Shown here piece after piece: positions 9,550 through 63,902 of a stretch of DNA of 64,000 nucleotides. A program made the position numbers and the translations under genes. The notes beneath the pieces were generated by a model that saw only the letters and a list, made by a program, of their open reading frames with translations, ran no database searches and was not told the DNA's origin. The stretch comes from Escherichia phage S143_2: the sequence record MZ189261.1, one strand, 5' to 3'. The number at the start of each line of letters is the position of its first letter. The first letter of the stretch is position 1.

Positions 9550-9612
9550 GATATTTTACTCATTTTAAGACGATAGGAAGATAATAACATGTCTTCCTAT
9601 CGTTGTACATTA

Positions 9613-10501: not shown

Positions 10502-10680
10502 GGCTTAATTTCCTTCGCAATTGAACAGAAGATACTACGGTCACAAAGCATTTCACCAATTTCTGGATATTTGATTGAACGGTACCAAACATCCAGGCTT
10601 GAAATTCTGGTTATCCGTACTGCATTACCATTGACAGAATAATACCGGTCAACCTTAATTTCTTTATCTTCAATTGTCAT
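10498..10680 (-). CDS. hypothetical protein (start corrected)
   Basis: ATG at 10680 (MTIEDKEIKV...); region 10681-10846 upstream is non-coding promoter/terminator sequence. Confidence 0.4.
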   Translation of the reverse strand: MTIEDKEIKVDRYYSVNGNAVRITRISSLDVWYRSIKYPEIGEMLCDRSIFCSIAKEIKP

Positions 10681-10809
10681 TTTGTTTTCCTCTATAGCAG
10701 ATGGTTTAATCTTAACATATCTATCGAGGATGTAAACTGTTTTATGAAAAATATTTTTGATTTGAGAGGGGCACAAGGAGATAGTGAAGTGAAGATTCCA
10801 ATGGTTTAT

Positions 10810-24982: not shown

Positions 24983-25142
24983 ACATTTGCAATTCGGAGT
25001 GGGCTTCGGCCATCTTTTTCATAGCTCTGTTAATGTCGATGTCTCCATCTTCGCAACCATGAGCATTTTCCCAATCAGATACCGCATTAGCGTACTCTTC
25101 AATCAAAAACATTAACTTAGAAATTTTTTCTTTACGTGACAT
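24963..25142 (-). CDS. hypothetical protein (start corrected to ATG 25142)
   Basis: 59 aa MSRKEKISKL...; preceded by GAGGAG. Confidence 0.4.
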   Translation of the reverse strand: MSRKEKISKLMFLIEEYANAVSDWENAHGCEDGDIDINRAMKKMAEAHSELQMYVNEIM

Positions 25143-25148
25143 AACGTT

Positions 25149-25198
25149 CTCCTCTAGTAAGTAAGGACTACTATAACACAACCTGAGGAGAAGTAAAC
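25149..25198 (-). promoter_or_regulatory. early promoter module with SD-complementary upstream arm
   Basis: minus strand GTTTAC-ttCTCCTCaggttgtgt-TATAGT-...-GAGGAG-aacgttATG; CTCCTC can pair with SD GAGGAG. Confidence 0.5.
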
Positions 25199-25243
25199 TG
25201 ATAGATGCCAAAAAGCCCCAACCATAAGGAAGGGGCTAGTAAA

Positions 25244-28312: not shown

Positions 28313-28771
28313 CTAGATTTTAATCACTGCTTTAGAAGCTTTTCCTGGTAGTCGTTTACTGTTAATAATAGCCATTCTGCATTGAAGAGTCTTCATTTTG
28401 AATGCTGGATTTTCGCGACAAACTGTAAGTCCTAACCAAAGATTTCCATCAGTTATTTCTAAACGGCCTGGACGATATTCGACACCTTCGACAAAATCTT
28501 CATCAACATCTGGACGTGCCGGCATTGATAAAAATTCTGCAACTTCTTTAACATGATTTTTTACTTTACGAAATAATTCAAAAACGTAGTTCTCATCTAT
28601 TTCTCTCTGGATAGCACGATCTAAGAGATGTTGAGAATACTTGATATGAAAGCCTGGTAGTCCAAGAGACTTTGCAGCATCTTTTATACCGGCATTTATT
28701 TTGCGGAACTCCGTTTCAAAGATTCGACGGAGTTTATTACGGCGGATAAAAACGTCAGAATTGATAGTCAT
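28313..28771 (-). CDS. regB: RegB endoribonuclease
   Basis: 152 aa; MTINSDVFIRRNKLRR...KYSQHLLDRAIQREIDENYVFELF...GRLEITDGNLWLG matches T4 RegB. Confidence 0.85.
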   Translation of the reverse strand: MTINSDVFIRRNKLRRIFETEFRKINAGIKDAAKSLGLPGFHIKYSQHLLDRAIQREIDENYVFELFRKVKNHVKEVAEFLSMPARPDVDEDFVEGVEYRPGRLEITDGNLWLGLTVCRENPAFKMKTLQCRMAIINSKRLPGKASKAVIKI

Positions 28772-28779
28772 TTTGATTT

Positions 28780-28828
28780 CTCCTCTAGTTGACAGGTCTA
28801 TAGTAACACAACTAGAGGAGAAGTAAAC
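28780..28828 (-). promoter_or_regulatory. early promoter with 12-bp perfect inverted repeat sequestering regB SD
   Basis: minus strand GTTTAC-ttCTCCTCTAGTTGtgttactatagacctgtCAACTAGAGGAGaaatcaaaATG; arms 28780-28791 and 28809-28820. Confidence 0.6.
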
Positions 28829-28832
28829 TACT

Positions 28833-29048
28833 TTATTGATAAAATGGAGTTAAAGCCCAAGATTCTTTAGATACCATATCGGCGAAATGCCTCATCTCTT
28901 CGATTTGGCGACGACGCTGGTCAGCATAGTCTTCTTCGCCTTCTTCCTTACAATCTTCAAGGTCTTCTTCAAGATACTTTAAGTATTCACTACAAATTTT
29001 GTTGACCTTTTCTTGAAAGTCCAATAACCCAGTAATAGTAGAAGCCAT
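28833..29048 (-). CDS. hypothetical acidic protein
   Basis: 71-aa ORF. Confidence 0.4.
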   Translation of the reverse strand: MASTITGLLDFQEKVNKICSEYLKYLEEDLEDCKEEGEEDYADQRRRQIEEMRHFADMVSKESWALTPFYQ

Positions 29049-29314
29049 TAGTATTTTTCCTCAGGTCGAAATACTGCACGACATGCCCACATGCTGGCTT
29101 CTTTTAGATGTTGCTTAGCATACTTAAGAGCCTGCACTGCATCCATATCTTCTTTGGTTTGTTGCTCTGATTCATTTTCTTTCAAGATATATGCTTCTTC
29201 AATCAGAGCATCAAACATCAATCCAAGACGGACTTCTGCGTCTTTAATAGCGTTCACTTTACTGATTTTATCATCGGTATGTGGCTTGTAGCCTTTGATG
29301 TCTTCAATCGACAT
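29048..29314 (-). CDS. hypothetical protein (89 aa, start at internal ATG)
   Basis: track ORF 29048..29482 overlaps neighbour; MSIEDIKGYKPHTDD... from ATG 29314. Confidence 0.35.
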   Translation of the reverse strand: MSIEDIKGYKPHTDDKISKVNAIKDAEVRLGLMFDALIEEAYILKENESEQQTKEDMDAVQALKYAKQHLKEASMWACRAVFRPEEKY

Positions 29315-32533: not shown

Positions 32534-32947
32534 TTAGTAAATTGATTTACCATAGTATTTGTACCAAGTAGGGCGCTGAGCAATTTTTTCATCTAAGCGT
32601 GCTTGACTTATCGCAATGGACGCTTCGGACGGGACATAATTATTACGAAATTCGGCAGGGATGTCGGAAATATCCTGGACAGTCGTGTCCTTGATTTTGA
32701 AACCACGTTTCAAGCATTCAGCGATTAGCTCGATTTGTCGTAAACGTAAAAATTCAAGTTTGTCGTAAAAGAATGTTACGTGACCTGTGCCTAAGATAAA
32801 TGTTGGAGAGATTTTAAAATCCTTTACACGTTTACCGTTTTGAACATGTTTACGGACTGCACCAAATACGCGTGGTAATTCACGATACTCAGCCATAAGA
32901 TGTTGGTCGGTCAGTTCAGAAACAAGTGTTAAATTGATACGAGTCAT
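32534..32947 (-). CDS. denV: endonuclease V (pyrimidine dimer DNA glycosylase) DenV
   Basis: 138 aa from ATG 32947: [35 protein letters not shown]... matches T4 DenV. Confidence 0.9.
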
Positions 32948-33005
32948 AAGTTCCTCCAAGTAGTTGATGAATGTATAGTATCAAAGTCCTTGGAGGAAGT
33001 AAACA

Positions 33006-33287
33006 CTATTTTTCTGAAGCGCCTGAAATATATTTTTCAAGACGTTGTTTCATCAGCGAGCCGTTCTTAGCGATTTCTTCCGGTTTATCGCACATACGCA
33101 ACAAGGCTTCAAGCTTAACGATATCGCTGGTACGTTCAAATTTGCGAGTATCTATCTTACTAGCAAGTTCAGAAATACGTGCTAATAGACTTTCAGCTTC
33201 AACCAAAGCTGCACCTAGCTTAGTTGCAAATGTGTCAGTAGCTTCGTTAAGAATAGATTCTGATAAAAATTCACTATATGTTTTCAT
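33006..33287 (-). CDS. internal protein (CTS-bearing)
   Basis: 93 aa from ATG 33287; [10 protein letters not shown] leader. Confidence 0.55.
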
Positions 33288-33772
33288 ATATACGCTTTCC
33301 AAGTTCCTGTTTTAAATGTTGAGATTACGCGTTTCGCGCGATTAGGTGTCTGACGATACCATTTAGATTGGGCTAGATTTACTGCCGCTTCGTCCCAACG
33401 TTTCTGTTGAAGCATACGAAGAGAATTAGTAAAACCAGCGACGCCTGCTACACCCATTTGGAAGACCATATTGACCAATGCACATCGACGAACTGCATCT
33501 AAAGAATCGTATACCGGTTTAAGTTTAGCATTACCCAAGATTCCGCGAACAGCTTTATCAACGTCTTCATTAAATAACTTTTCAGCCTCATCAAGGGTAA
33601 TTGTACCGTTGCATTTACGTCCGATCATTCTGTCAAGTTCAGCTTTAGCTACGGCTAAAGACGGGTTCTTTGTTACTAAATGACCTATGCCAATCGTCCA
33701 AAAGCCTTCAGTGTCTTTGTATAAAGTCAGTCTAAGACCTTCGTCATTACGAAGCATTTCAAATATATTCAT
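33284..33772 (-). CDS. e: lysozyme (endolysin), gene e
   Basis: 162 aa from ATG 33772: [32 protein letters not shown]...; matches T4 lysozyme incl. catalytic E11/D20/T26 context. Confidence 0.9.
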
Positions 33773-33806
33773 AATACCTCCCACGTTTATAGGAGGTATT
33801 TATTAC

Positions 33807-42192: not shown

Positions 42193-42269
<77 letters not shown>

Positions 42270-42273
42270 TATT

Positions 42274-42348
42274 TGGCGGACGTGATAGGATTCGAACCTA
42301 TAACCAATCGCTTAACAGGCGATCGCTCTGCCATTGAGCTACACATCC
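42274..42348 (-). tRNA. tRNA-Asn (anticodon GUU)
   Basis: 75-nt cloverleaf; anticodon stem ATCGC/GCGAT, loop CUGUUAA; T-arm GGTTCGAATCC; encoded CCA. Confidence 0.8.
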
Positions 42349-42352
42349 AAAT

Positions 42353-42439
42353 TGGTGGGGAGTGATGGAGTCGAACCACCCGAGTCGCAATGACAATGGA
42401 TTTACAGTCCACACCGCTACCTCTACGGGATAACTCCCC
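42353..42439 (-). tRNA. tRNA-Tyr (anticodon GUA)
   Basis: 87 nt with long variable arm; anticodon loop CUGUAAA; acceptor GGGGAGT/ACTCCCC; encoded CCA. Confidence 0.75.
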
Positions 42440-42451
42440 TAATTCATAATT

Positions 42452-42526
42452 TGGTGGCCCTGGGTGGAATTGAACCACCATCTGGCGATTATGAGTCGCT
42501 TGCTTGAACCTTCCAGCTACAGGGCC
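42452..42526 (-). tRNA. tRNA with CAU anticodon (Met or Ile2)
   Basis: 75-nt cloverleaf; anticodon loop CUCAUAA; position after Thr corresponds to T4 tRNA-Ile. Confidence 0.75.
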
Positions 42527-42527
42527 T

Positions 42528-42604
42528 TGGTGCTGATTGACGGAATCGAACCGCCGACCTTCTCATTACAAGTGAGTTGCTCTACCTACTGAGCTAAATC
42601 AGCA
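42528..42604 (-). tRNA. tRNA-Thr (anticodon UGU)
   Basis: 77-nt cloverleaf; anticodon loop CUUGUAA; T-arm GGTTCGATTCC. Confidence 0.8.
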
Positions 42605-42608
42605 AAAC

Positions 42609-42698
42609 TGGCGGAGGCGATAGGATTTGAACCTATGAGTCGCCGGAGCGACTGCCGGTTTTCAAGACCGGTGCATTAAACCACTCTGCCACGCCTCC
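42609..42698 (-). tRNA. tRNA-Ser (anticodon UGA)
   Basis: 90 nt with long variable arm; anticodon loop CUUGAAA; acceptor GGAGGCG/CGCCTCC. Confidence 0.8.
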
Positions 42699-42700
42699 AG

Positions 42701-42774
42701 TCTCCATACAAGGATTTGAACCTTGGGCCTCCTGATCCCAAATCAGGCGCTCTACCAAACTGAGCTACACGGAG
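42701..42774 (-). tRNA. tRNA-Pro (anticodon UGG)
   Basis: 74 nt; anticodon loop UUUGGGA; T-arm GGTTCAAATCC; CCA not encoded. Confidence 0.75.
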
Positions 42775-42784
42775 TAAATTAAAT

Positions 42785-42858
<74 letters not shown>

Positions 42859-42863
42859 AAATT

Positions 42864-42950
42864 TGGTGCGAGAAGTGGGACTCGAACCCACAAGGAAATC
42901 ATTCCGCAGCATTTTAAGTGCTGTGCCTTTACCAATTTGGCCATTCTCGC
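42864..42950 (-). tRNA. tRNA-Leu (anticodon UAA)
   Basis: 87 nt with long variable arm; anticodon loop CUUAAAA. Confidence 0.8.
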
Positions 42951-42951
42951 G

Positions 42952-43024
42952 CTGGGAATAAAGGACTCGAACCTTTGCATCCTGGAATCAAAATCCAGTG
43001 CCTTACCAACTTGGCTAATTCCCA
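42952..43024 (-). tRNA. tRNA-Gln (anticodon UUG)
   Basis: 73 nt; anticodon loop UUUUGAU; T-arm GGTTCGAGTCC; CCA not encoded. Confidence 0.75.
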
Positions 43025-60874: not shown

Positions 60875-62454
60875 GTAATAACAATACATACCAACACGTT
60901 TCAAACGAATCCATTTACGTTGAATTCGACCCTACGGGGTCGAATTTTCCAGATACAGTCACTAATGTCCAAGCCGCATTAGCTGCTATTTCTCCTTCAG
61001 GTGTTAATGGTGTACCGGAAGCAACAACTACTACACCAGGAATTATTCAAATAGCTACTCCACAAGAAGTTATTGATGGATTAGATAATAGTAAAGCTGT
61101 TACTCCGGCAACACTGAATGCTCGTCTACAATATCCTAATGCAACCGAAACTCAATATGGCTTAACTCGTTATGCGACTGAAGATGAAGCAGTAACCGGA
61201 GCTATTGACGATGCATCAATTACTCCGCTTAAATTAAATCAAAAAATAGACAATGTATTTCAGACAAAAGTGTCGACAGAAGCAACAAATGGTGTAATTA
61301 AAATTTCAACTTCTGCCGCGGCATTAGCTGGTTCTGACGATACAACGGCAATGACTCCGTTAAAAACGCAACAATTAGCAATTAAACTTATTTCGCAAAT
61401 TGCTCCAAATAATAGTGACGCCACCGAATCTATTACAGGTGTTGTTCGTTTGGCTACAGTTGCTCAAGCACAACAAGGCACCCTGCGTGAAGGCTATGCA
61501 ATTTCACCTTATACCTTTATGAATTCAGTAGCATCAGAAACTAATAAAGGTGTCGTTAAACTAGGGACACAGACTGAAGTAAATAGTAACAACTCTTCAG
61601 TTGTAGTGACCGGCGCAACATTAAACGGACGTGGGGCTACAACTTCTTTACGTGGAGTTGTTCGTTTAACTACACAAGCCGGTAGCCAATCAGGTGGTGA
61701 TGGTTCTTCTGCCCTTGCTTGGAATGCTGATGTTATCCACCAACGAGGTGGACAAACTATTAATGGCACGCTTCGCATTAATAATACGTTGACGGTTGGT
61801 TCTGGTGGAGCTAATATAACTGGTAATGTCAATATGACCGGTGGTTATATTCAAGGCAATCGTATTGTGACTCAAAATGAATTAGACCGAATTCTTCCAG
61901 TTGGCGCTATTACAATGTGGGCTGCAGATAGTTTACCGAGTTCTGACTGGCGCTTCTGTCATGGTGGGACCGTTTCTGCTTCAGAATGCCCGGTATATGC
62001 TTCCAGAATTGGGACACGATATGGTGGTAGTTCTTCTAACCCAGGCTTGCCTGATATGCGTGGATTATTTGTTCGCGGCTCAGGTCGTGGTAACCATTTA
62101 ACTAACCCTAATGTTAATGGTAATGACCAATTCGGTAAGCCTCGTCTGGCGGTAGGTTGTACCGGTGGATATGTTGGTGAAGTGCAAAAACAACAGATGT
62201 CATATCATAAGCATGCTGGTGGTTTTGGTGAATATGACGATTCCGGTGCATTTGGTAATACTCGTCGTTCAAACTTTGTTGGTACTCGTAAAGGACTTGA
62301 CTGGGATAACCGTTCGTATTTTACTAACGAGGGATATGAAATTGATCCGGCGTCTCAGCGTAACTCTAGATATACCATGAATCGTCCAGAATTAATTGGA
62401 AATGAAACTCGCCCATGGAATATTTCTTTAAACTATATCATTAAGGTAAAATAA
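60871..62454 (+). CDS. 12: short tail fibre gp12
   Basis: 527 aa, same length as T4 gp12. Confidence 0.95.
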
Positions 62455-63902
62455 TGACTGATATAACTCTGGTAGATTTACCATATGTTGACGGCCCGCC
62501 AGACGCGGGTCAGAGCCGTATTGAATGGATTAAAAACGATGAAGAAATAACAGGTGCTGACACAAAATACGGTTCTGAAGGTGTAATGAACCGTCCTATT
62601 GTTGAAGTTCAACGTAACGTAGAAGCGTTAGATGTTAATATTAAAACTATAGCATCTTCTTTGAATACGGCCAATGAAGATATCAAAGTTATTCAAGGTA
62701 TTTTAGATGTTTCCGGGGATGTTGATGCTCTTGCACAGATAGGCCAGAACACCCAAGATATCGATGTCATTAAAGTCACAGTTCAAACCCATGCTAGTGA
62801 ATTGAATGATTTGAATAAACATATTGATGCGAATACTGATGATATTGGCGTTTATAATCAGGAAACAGATTCAGTTTATAGAACTGTTCGTAACGACCTG
62901 CTTTGGATTAAAAATGAATTAGGACAATATACCGGTCAAGATATTAATGGGGTTCCTACTCCAGGAAATGATAGCACTGGTATGAAACGCCGTATTATGA
63001 CTAATAGCTCCGTGATTGTTGACCACGGTGTTCGATTAACTGATTTAGAAACTAAATTTGCTGATTCTGACGTCGGCTCTTTAACTAATGAAGTCGAACA
63101 CTTACGCGAAGAAATGGGGCCTCGCACTTCTTTCACTACTCCAGTATTTAGTCGTCTTTCCGGTATTGATTTAACTTTGTCGCGTCAAAATGCTGACTTA
63201 GATGGCATTAAACAGTCTATTGGGTATCCTAATACGACTTCTATTATTACTACAACTAATGCGAATAGTTCAGCAATAAACGACATTAATCTTGAGCTCA
63301 ATCAATCGGGTGGTATTAAACCTCGTTTGACCACAGTAGAAACTGCCATTGGCGCCGATGATTTGCCTACTACAATCCAAGGACGTATTAAACTCAATAC
63401 TGATGCTATCGGAGCATTGAACACTGTTGTCGGCTCTGATTCTTCGTCAGGATTGCGTTTTAATGTGTCATGGTTAAATAACGTAGTCGGTGTTGACGCT
63501 TCAGGTGGGAAACCGGAACCAGAAGGCTCTTTGCTTTATCGTACTAGAGCGCTTGAAGGATCTATCGGTGAGATGAGTAACGACATTCAGAACATTCAAA
63601 CTGATGTTGGGACTAATACCACAGGGGTTAAGGGTTCTGTAAACACATTAAATACTCTTATAAACGGCACCAACCCAAATGGTTCGACTGTTGAAGAACG
63701 TGGTATATTGCCTACAGTTAAAAGTCATGATACGACAATTAATGGTTTAACTTCTAGAATTGCTACTCTTGAAACTGATTTGGCCGCTGCAGAAGCTGAA
63801 ATCCAAACTCTTAAGGACGCTGGATATATTGAAGATGCTCCTTCAGACGGTAAATTCTATGTTCGCAAAGACGGTGCATGGGTTGAACTTCCTACAGCTT
63901 AA
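62454..63902 (+). CDS. wac: fibritin (whisker antigen control)
   Basis: 482 aa; coiled-coil repeats and C-terminal foldon GYIEDAPSDGKFYVRKDGAWVELPTA. Confidence 0.9.
   Translation: MTDITLVDLPYVDGPPDAGQSRIEWIKNDEEITGADTKYGSEGVMNRPIVEVQRNVEALDVNIKTIASSLNTANEDIKVIQGILDVSGDVDALAQIGQNTQDIDVIKVTVQTHASELNDLNKHIDANTDDIGVYNQETDSVYRTVRNDLLWIKNELGQYTGQDINGVPTPGNDSTGMKRRIMTNSSVIVDHGVRLTDLETKFADSDVGSLTNEVEHLREEMGPRTSFTTPVFSRLSGIDLTLSRQNADLDGIKQSIGYPNTTSIITTTNANSSAINDINLELNQSGGIKPRLTTVETAIGADDLPTTIQGRIKLNTDAIGALNTVVGSDSSSGLRFNVSWLNNVVGVDASGGKPEPEGSLLYRTRALEGSIGEMSNDIQNIQTDVGTNTTGVKGSVNTLNTLINGTNPNGSTVEERGILPTVKSHDTTINGLTSRIATLETDLAAAEAEIQTLKDAGYIEDAPSDGKFYVRKDGAWVELPTA

Follow-up and report, generated by a model that had tools for sequence, protein, structure and literature searches.

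The early promoter of regB in the phage studied here is interlaced with a perfect inverted repeat, one arm of which carries the gene's own Shine-Dalgarno (SD) sequence, and the question raised by this locus is whether that repeat acts on transcription, on the DNA or on the translation of regB. An answer at the level of transcription has existed since the T4 record X04567 (GenBank, 1986), which annotates inverted repeats A/A' to D/D' in the 58.3-65.5 kb region, each bracketing the putative -10 of ipIII, ipII, denV or ORF 61.9 (that is, regB), and labels all four 'put. stem-loop structure; pot. transcription terminator', i.e., of the upstream gene. D/D' is the T4 orthologue of the regB repeat examined here and C/C' that of the denV repeat. 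The ribosome-binding sites lie inside C' and D', and the T4 arms differ in sequence from ours by compensatory differences. Later, Arbiol et al. 2010 and Comeau et al. 2014 described promoter-early stem-loops (PeSLs), which they read as attenuators and recombination sites. In the commonest type reported by Arbiol et al. 2010 the stem-loop lies between -35 and -10 or overlaps the -10, and one PeSL stem-loop cut lacZ expression as much as rrnB T1; translation is not discussed in these two papers.

An answer at the level of translation is suggested by other T4 genes. Inhibitory hairpins at the initiation region are listed for e, soc, 49 and I-TevI, regB not being on the list given in the review PMC3014915, and the hairpin of gene e has been experimentally validated, lowering lysozyme synthesis 100-fold on early transcripts (PMC3014915). 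As to RegB itself, the same review, citing others, reports that in T4, and in those relatives that have been tested, RB69 among them, the enzyme cuts the GGAG of its own SD, so that the suggestion made in a preliminary description of this DNA, namely that RegB could act on its own leader, had already been published. RNA structure protects against RegB cleavage, and the early promoter of regB is shut off after 2-3 min.

The regB promoter and its inverted repeat

The window, meaning the whole 64,000-nt stretch that was analyzed, comes from an RB69-like phage of the T4 type. At the regB locus its DNA is 99.3% identical to that of Escherichia phage 308Ecol101PP, of the genus Mosigvirus, and the genes of this region are all encoded on the minus strand. 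The features of the locus are the following:

28313..28771, minus strand: regB coding sequence from the list of open reading frames, 152 aa, ATG at 28771-28769
28778..28791, minus strand: 3' arm of the hairpin, sense CAACTAGAGGAGAA, pairing with the 5' arm in the minimum free energy (MFE) and centroid folds
28792..28808, minus strand: hairpin loop of 17 nt, sense TGT-TACTAT-AGACCTGT, read from the sequence
28809..28822, minus strand: 5' arm of the hairpin (anti-SD), sense TTCTCCTCTAGTTG, its position relative to -35 and -10 read from the sequence
28823..28828, minus strand: -35 hexamer GTTTAC of the regB early promoter, the same in nearly all regB relatives
28833..29048, minus strand: upstream ORF of 71 aa with no Pfam match, stop codon TAA at 28835-28833

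The identity of the gene is given by its product, which matches Pfam PF10715 REGB_T4 (E = 8.8e-69) and is 76.8% identical to T4 RegB. Its promoter, GTTTAC-N17-TACTAT with a TGT, fits the T4-type early consensus TTTACW-N17-TAYWAT (PMC4122927) and is preceded by an A/T-rich region; it is thus predicted to be an early promoter of the sigma-70 type. Four nucleotides (AGTA) separate its -35 from the TAA of the upstream ORF. The 5' arm makes up the first 14 nt of the 17-nt spacer, and the loop holds the TGn element, the -10 TACTAT (28805-28800) and the predicted transcription start at about 28793, the seventh nucleotide after the -10, a position predicted from the consensus. Both the SD GAGGAG (28785-28780) and the RegB motif GGAG fall inside the 3' arm, which is followed by six nucleotides (ATCAAA) and the ATG. 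Since the 5' arm sits between -35 and -10, it is absent from any transcript started at the regB promoter.

The preliminary description had placed a 12-bp perfect repeat at this point, with CTCCTCTAGTTG at 28780-28791 and CAACTAGAGGAG at 28809-28820 (plus strand). Both segments are where it put them and they do bracket the -10, which lies in the loop, but the true perfect arms are 14 bp long (28778-28791 and 28809-28822), and with mismatches allowed the arms extend to 19 nt at 89%. It had also taken one arm to be the SD of regB without stating the strand. This holds for the minus strand (28785-28780); because the genes are on that strand, the GAGGAG found on the plus strand at 28815-28820 is the complement of the anti-SD and not an SD.

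A repeat of this kind is not expected by chance. When loops of 3-45 nt are allowed, the 64-kb window has a single perfect hairpin-type repeat of 14 bp or more, the one at regB, whereas 30 dinucleotide shuffles contain 0.03 on average, which rules out a chance origin. Together with the repeat at denV, the regB repeat heads the 13 inverted repeats returned for the window.

Predicted folding of long and short regB RNAs

The two RNAs that this geometry would produce are predicted to fold very differently. A 69-nt RNA with both arms reaches -21.7 kcal/mol (z = -3.75, none of 200 shuffles being equally stable), and the 14-bp helix is present both in the MFE fold and in the centroid of a 149-nt read-through RNA. 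In contrast, a 50-nt promoter-proximal RNA beginning just after the -10 reaches only -2.8 kcal/mol (z = +1.5), i.e., it is less structured than its shuffles. The same contrast between read-through and proximal RNA is seen for T4 regB. Translated into the predicted cost of opening the SD, the difference is 13.9 against 3.1 kcal/mol in the window, and 3.7-17.2 against 0.9-4.8 kcal/mol in 12 other lineages with an anti-SD in the spacer. The comparison of the two RNAs had been suggested in the preliminary description, whose claim that read-through transcripts fold the SD into a hairpin is thereby borne out in silico. Its companion claim, that transcripts started at the promoter would be translatable, stands as far as geometry removes the 5' arm from them and the predicted fold leaves them open; translatability itself is a prediction of the folding model.

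One further measure was dropped as evidence. The probability that the SD pairs with nucleotides ahead of the transcription start is 0.84-1.0 in all 17 regB lineages described below, but shuffled upstream sequence already gives 0.2-0.85, so this quantity is unspecific.

The GGAG of regB is predicted to be single-stranded in the proximal RNA and in the stem in the read-through RNA. The consensus for a RegB/S1 site is GGAGAAUAAAA, an intergenic GGAG with an A-rich tract of 7 nt after it, in which positions 6, 8 and 11 are A and C is excluded. The site in the regB leader, GGAGAAAUCAA, carries A at 6 and at 11 but U at 8, and contains one C, its 3' context AAAUCAA deviating slightly from the consensus AAUAAAA; close relatives have GGAGAAAUAAA there.

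Conservation of the pairing among regB relatives

If the pairing matters, its arms should change together. The comparative set consisted of 61 regB loci (viral and metagenomic contigs, plus T4), which reduce to 35 distinct combinations of promoter and leader and to 17 lineages. In 13 of these 17 the spacer begins with an anti-SD, whose complementary extension is specific to each lineage, as the following arms illustrate:

T4: TTTTCCTCTTGACTG / CAGTTAAGAGGAGAA
L027: TTTCTCCTCTTTATG / CATAAAGAGGAGAAA
L030: ATCTCCTTTTAGT / ACTAAAAGGAGAT
L033: ATCTCCTGTAG / CTACAGGAGAT
L044: ATCCTCATTTG / CAAATGAGGAT
L048: CCTCCTTT / AAAGGAGG
L049: TCTCCTGTAAG / CTTACAGGAGA
L050: CTCCTCTTG / CAAGAGGAG
L072: ATCCTCTCTG / CAGAGAGGAT

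The SD itself varies (GAGGAG, CAGGAG, AAGGAG, GAGGAT), and the spacer changes along with it. When the spacers and leaders of the 17 lineages were combined in all pairs, the cognate duplexes averaged -15.4 kcal/mol and the non-cognate ones -9.1 kcal/mol (permutation p < 1e-5), ten lineages being the best of both their own row and their own column. An alignment anchored at the CC/GG core, with 29 distinct rows of which nine lack a spacer anti-SD, gave a covariation score of 0.243, against 0.106 +/- 0.015 after shuffling (0 of 500 shuffles reached 0.243) and 0.06-0.14 in slid registers, and 54 of its cells were changed on both sides where 24.6 were expected. The pair adjoining the SD core is U-A in nine rows, G-C in eight and C-G in six. 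The rows of L044 and L072, shifted by MAFFT, were left out of this count of pairs, and both are additional compensatory cases.

Two of the lineages without a spacer anti-SD, L045 and L052, reach a similar result by another route, the -10 hexamer and discriminator pairing with the SD, the AUG and the first codons, so that the alternative 5' arm still lies upstream of the start site. Elsewhere the element is weak or missing: among the Aeromonas phages, 44RR (L060) has almost no pairing between spacer and leader and L058 keeps a weak stem over the SD, and Krischvirus and phage PspYZU05 have no regB promoter directly upstream, so that the absence of the hairpin there can be attributed to regB lacking an adjacent promoter of its own. 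As judged from the sequences compared, the complementarity between spacer and leader at regB is conserved and under selection. A part of the covariation must nonetheless be put down to module exchange and not to stepwise compensation, since whole cassettes move between genes.

Related cassettes in the window and in T4

The regB arrangement has counterparts elsewhere in the window, listed here together with a neighboring terminator and the hairpin of gene e, all of them on the minus strand:

25140..25198, minus strand: paralogous cassette before a DUF7438 gene; -35 at 25198-25193, -10 TATAGT at 25175-25170, ATG at 25142-25140
25210..25237, minus strand: intrinsic terminator AGCCCC...GGGGCT with a T run, after a rI-like gene and directly upstream of the preceding cassette (sequence and fold)
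32945..33004, minus strand: denV cassette; -35 at 33004-32999, -10 at 32980-32975, ATG at 32947-32945
10678..10737, minus strand: weaker cassette; 5' arm TCCTCgATAG at 10730-10721, 3' arm CTATaGAGGA at 10697-10688
33773-33800, minus strand: hairpin of gene e, with a stem of 12 bp in the predicted fold (14 bp at regB)

For the first of these, the preliminary description had reported the same arrangement at 25149-25198. It is real and stronger than described, since TTCTCCTCAGGT (25192-25181) and ACTAGAGGAGAA (25158-25147) form 11 of 12 pairs, with one G.U and one A.A, the final 12 nt of its 3' arm (ACTAGAGGAGAA) are common to the regB 3' arm, and the two cassettes share the exact 14-mer GTTTACTTCTCCTC. 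All the close relatives found to carry this cassette, three in number, have invariant arms and a variable loop, and for this reason it is uninformative on covariation.

The denV cassette, with arms TTCCTCCAAG (32998-32989) and CTTGGAGGAA (32960-32951), folds at -19.6 kcal/mol (z = -3.49). Among 32 distinct denV relatives, 23 form a duplex of -12 kcal/mol or lower between the SD and sequence ahead of the transcription start, using other arm sequences and taking the 5' arm either from the spacer or from the -10/discriminator region; denV in T4 has the design of the window denV. The fold of the 10737 cassette is weak (-9.5 kcal/mol, z = -1.1).

Over the 17 early promoter-gene units of the window, spacers pair better with their cognate leaders (-10.0 kcal/mol) than with non-cognate ones (-7.1 kcal/mol, p = 2e-5), and the pairing involves the SD in four of them, namely regB, 25198, denV (33004) and, weakly, 10737. 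In several others the spacer pairs with the sequence right after the -10 (TAGGACT/AGTCCTA and variants) and leaves the SD free. The promoter units of T4 give the same picture (p = 7e-4), with stems of the SD type at regB, denV and motB.2. Thus, a spacer that pairs with the SD is neither unique to regB nor universal, and the many early promoters with -10 stems that spare the SD indicate that some of the pressure for promoter stem-loops is independent of translation.

Terminator, exchange site or translational gate

This last observation is part of what speaks for the explanation that competes best with a translational role, i.e., that the regB hairpin is an attenuator or terminator of the PeSL type, which stops or dampens transcription from upstream so that regB is expressed only from its own promoter, the involvement of the SD being incidental. 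The resemblance to PeSLs is considerable, since regB too has an early promoter between genes, A/T-rich sequence ahead of it, an associated stem-loop, and then SD and ATG, and cassettes of the regB type are likewise repeated in the genome and found at mosaic junctions (the 25198 copy; L063, L028, L056). The 1986 label given to the T4 repeat and its three companions, and the lacZ result of Arbiol et al. 2010 with a stem-loop at the -35/-10, point in the same direction. However, the five published PeSL positions are all upstream of the transcription start, whereas the 3' arm at regB is the SD and lies downstream of the predicted start. The hairpin itself is also poorly built for termination: its loop has 17 nt, only 6 of its 14 pairs are G-C, the tail after the stem is AAAUCAAAAUG, and a scan for terminators did not call the site. 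A canonical intrinsic terminator, for which a U tract would also be needed, was rejected on these grounds. Moreover, in every lineage listed an A-rich sequence leading into the ATG follows the hairpin and no T run is present, while true terminators occur as separate GC-rich stems with a T run upstream of the promoter, as in the Aeromonas phages, where one precedes the regB promoter, and at 25210-25237 in the window. A terminator would account neither for the use of the SD as 3' arm in 13 lineages nor for the rebuilding of the helix over SD and AUG in L045 and L052. Taken together, these points make this explanation unlikely. A search of Rfam gave no match at the regB locus, its sole hit scoring 17.9 bits against a threshold of 208.

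A second explanation places the function in the DNA. The repeat would be a feature of a mobile promoter cassette, serving recombination or module exchange as a cruciform or hairpin DNA, or would simply be copied passively with the cassette. Such cassettes do move between genes. L063 carries the same regB and promoter behind another upstream gene, the sequences diverging at AGTAGTTTAC, exactly at the promoter; in many records the megablast coverage falls off upstream of regB; the cassette at 25198 nearly copies that of regB; and T4 denV and the regB of the L043 group have almost identical cassettes. Shuffling mediated by PeSLs has been documented as well (Arbiol 2010; Comeau 2014). Nor does a wobble test favor RNA, as internal G.U pairs and A.C mismatches in the regB helices number two each; with stems that are almost entirely Watson-Crick, this test does not separate an RNA hairpin from a DNA inverted repeat. 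What weighs against the DNA explanation is that homologous exchange needs similarity between cassettes and not complementarity within each of them, that arms which vary by lineage and yet stay complementary do not fit a sequence-specific protein site, and that it is without exception the translation initiation region that forms the 3' arm, the alternative geometries included. The complementarity of each module over its own initiation region would be left unexplained, and we consider a purely DNA-level role improbable.

No less improbable is translational coupling, in which a ribosome finishing the upstream ORF would melt the stem and so tie the translation of regB on long transcripts to the upstream gene: the upstream stop, which precedes the -35 by 4 nt here and by 0-4 nt in other lineages, is 8-13 nt from the first paired base, from where terminating ribosomes might partly open the stem, but at the 13 nt found in the window such a ribosome would barely reach the first of the 14 pairs, and the upstream gene differs between otherwise identical cassettes (the window and L063; L027 and L028), so that no specific coupling partner is conserved.

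A proposed translational gate around an early promoter

The reading that we prefer, with a probability of about 0.6, is that the regB element may be an SD-sequestering gate of the kind known for e, soc, 49 and I-TevI, set around an early promoter. It draws on the predicted folds and on the comparison of sequences, and it would require transcripts that enter regB from upstream. Such read-through is plausible. The scan found no terminator-like sites between the upstream promoters (30807, 32263, 33004) and regB, and the upstream ORF can be considered a source of read-through because no terminator intervenes before the regB -35. T4 regB (62279-62740) has a middle promoter upstream of it, Pvs.7, with its start at 64382; a search of the window with a strict MotA-box pattern found no middle promoter upstream of regB.

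In the proposed mechanism, the early promoter would have a dual use, in that the RNA copy of its spacer would serve as an anti-SD. Transcripts coming from upstream (early read-through and, later, middle-mode transcripts) would carry both arms, fold the 14-bp hairpin that buries the regB SD and, presumably by exclusion of the 30S subunit, go untranslated. They would also stay uncut at the regB GGAG, since RegB needs this motif single-stranded. Transcripts from the embedded promoter, on the other hand, would start 1-2 nt before the 3' arm with an open 22-nt leader, would be translated at once and would then lose their activity when RegB cuts their SD. RegB synthesis would thus be limited to the time when the embedded early promoter fires, the first few minutes. 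Self-cleavage by RegB, its inhibition by structure, the shut-off of the early promoter and the upstream middle promoter of T4 are taken from the literature, and we infer the read-through transcripts in the window phage, the 30S block in vivo and the start site.

This scheme shares with the e, soc, 49 and I-TevI systems the pairing of the initiation region with an upstream segment in long transcripts and a promoter in or next to the 5' arm, from which short, armless and translated transcripts arise, and the stem at regB is similar in size to that of e. It differs in that the embedded promoter is early and not of the late TATAAATA (gp55) type, and in that the promoter spacer supplies the 5' arm, with the -10 placed in the loop. 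The analogy with e, 49 and soc drawn in the preliminary description is therefore apt, and the hairpin of e is present in the window, but its temporal logic has to be reversed: with an early embedded promoter, the regB gate would restrict expression to the first minutes, where the late precedents postpone it. With respect to the published self-cleavage, the GGAG and the leader are the same, and that mechanism acts on open RNA; the hairpin would add a second population of mRNA in which the RegB site is protected.

Implications

Much of this was known, including the repeat structure (in T4 since 1986, under another interpretation), the PeSLs, the cleavage by RegB of its own mRNA and promoter-in-hairpin control. 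What is most likely new, as far as folding models and sequence comparison indicate, is regB as a promoter-in-hairpin case with an early promoter, and not a new mechanism. A translational reading of the regB hairpin was not found in the literature searched, although older papers may contain an earlier statement of it. The gain is incremental, as this principle has already been demonstrated with four late-expressed T4 genes.

The wider proposal, that T4-type phages may use promoter DNA as a switch against the ribosome-binding site on regB, denV, T4 motB.2 and the DUF7438 gene of the window, is more tentative, and we would put its chances at slightly less than even. If it is true, each of these genes would have a short mRNA form that is translated and sensitive to RegB and a long form that is silent and resistant to it, amounting to an 'immediate-early only' class of translation, which would have gone unrecognized because the stem-loops were taken for terminators; the 'terminators' of 1986 and the later PeSL attenuators would then have to be re-read as translational gates. 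The repeated reinvention of the helix, with a 5' arm taken from the spacer or from the -10/discriminator, would mark strong selection. As a design rule, the spacer of a promoter, otherwise free sequence, can encode an anti-SD, and this may be usable in synthetic constructs. For the phage itself, the meaning would lie in the nature of RegB, a toxin-like RNase that shapes the early-to-middle switch of T4 and whose synthesis is said to need tight control. A gate of this type would limit that synthesis to the first minutes of infection even though transcription keeps crossing the gene, and it would explain how some GGAG sites escape RegB.

Anti-SD cassettes at denV and motB.2

The promoter of denV shows the same anti-SD design as that of regB, with an inverted repeat that took the top rank among those returned for the window:

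32945-33007, minus strand: denV anti-SD cassette, TTCCTCCAAG/CTTGGAGGAA, 10 bp, perfect

If extended, the arms reach 24 nt (75%). The arms of T4 denV (TCTCCTGTAG/CTACAGGAGA) differ from those in the window, and a duplex covering the SD is kept at denV in 23 of 32 distinct relatives. In T4 itself, a further cassette was found:

L081 (T4 8218), upstream of motB.2: motB.2 promoter cassette

Here the leader CCATAGCTACTGAGGA pairs with the spacer TTCCTCGGTTAGTTGTGG (-23.1 kcal/mol). RegB cleavage at GGAU has been reported for only two sites, one of them being the GGAU of this T4 leader.

Stems bracketing the -10 and other inverted repeats

At many early promoters on the minus strand of the window, a second type of inverted repeat brackets the -10:

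24746, 35804, 44754, 37099, 44037 and 20282 (G of GTTTAC), minus strand: -10-bracketing stems

In these stems, a spacer TAGGnCT is paired with AGnCCTA immediately 3' of the -10, the variants being TAGGGCT/AGTCCTA (with one G.U), ATAGGGTA/TACCCTAT and AGGTCTAT/ATAGACCT. Because the stem ends upstream of the predicted start site and leaves the SD unpaired, they look like PeSL stem-loops. A typical PeSL of the RB49 type, whose stem lies over the -10, is found in Krischvirus G2248:

L078 (Krischvirus G2248 locus), 1-60: PeSL, GGGGGTA-GTAATA-TACCCCC

The gene 3' of it is annotated in the record as a second 'RegB', apparently wrongly; the record gives this name to three adjacent CDS.

Three other inverted repeats of the window are listed here:

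33773-33800, minus strand: known gene e hairpin, AAUACCUCCUAUAAACGUGGGAGGUAUU, 12-bp stem, ending one nt upstream of the e start codon at 33772
29157-29172 / 29201-29216: 16-nt repeat, 94% complementary, 28 nt between arms, inside the coding sequence of the second gene upstream of regB
9570-9581 / 9592-9603: 12-bp perfect repeat, ACGATAGGAAGA / TCTTCCTATCGT, 10-nt loop

Middle promoters and tRNA genes

A search of the whole window for a MotA-box-type middle-promoter pattern (TGCTTNA-N10-14-TANNNT) yielded 20 matches, an enrichment over the 5.95 expected, and none of 100 shuffles reached 20; no match to this pattern falls in the regB-denV interval. The window also carries a tRNA cluster:

42196-43024, minus strand: ten tRNA genes, of which that at 42358-42437 barely exceeds the Rfam threshold

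Apparent movement of promoter-leader cassettes

The denV promoter-leader cassette of T4 (L080, T4 65413) is nearly identical to the regB leaders of another phage group (L043 and L033), all sharing GTTTAC ATCTCCTGTAGG.ATGA TACTAT A.ACCTATCAACTACAGGAGA. Modules consisting of promoter, anti-SD and SD thus seem to transfer whole from gene to gene. In a metagenomic phage (L063), RegB is 99% identical to that of the window and the promoter is identical, whereas the gene upstream of regB differs, being T4 vs.3-like in L063. In the comparison with 28829-28900 of the window, the point of divergence is exactly AGTAGTTTAC, and junctions of this kind also occur in the pairs L027/L028 and L029/L056 of the collected loci.
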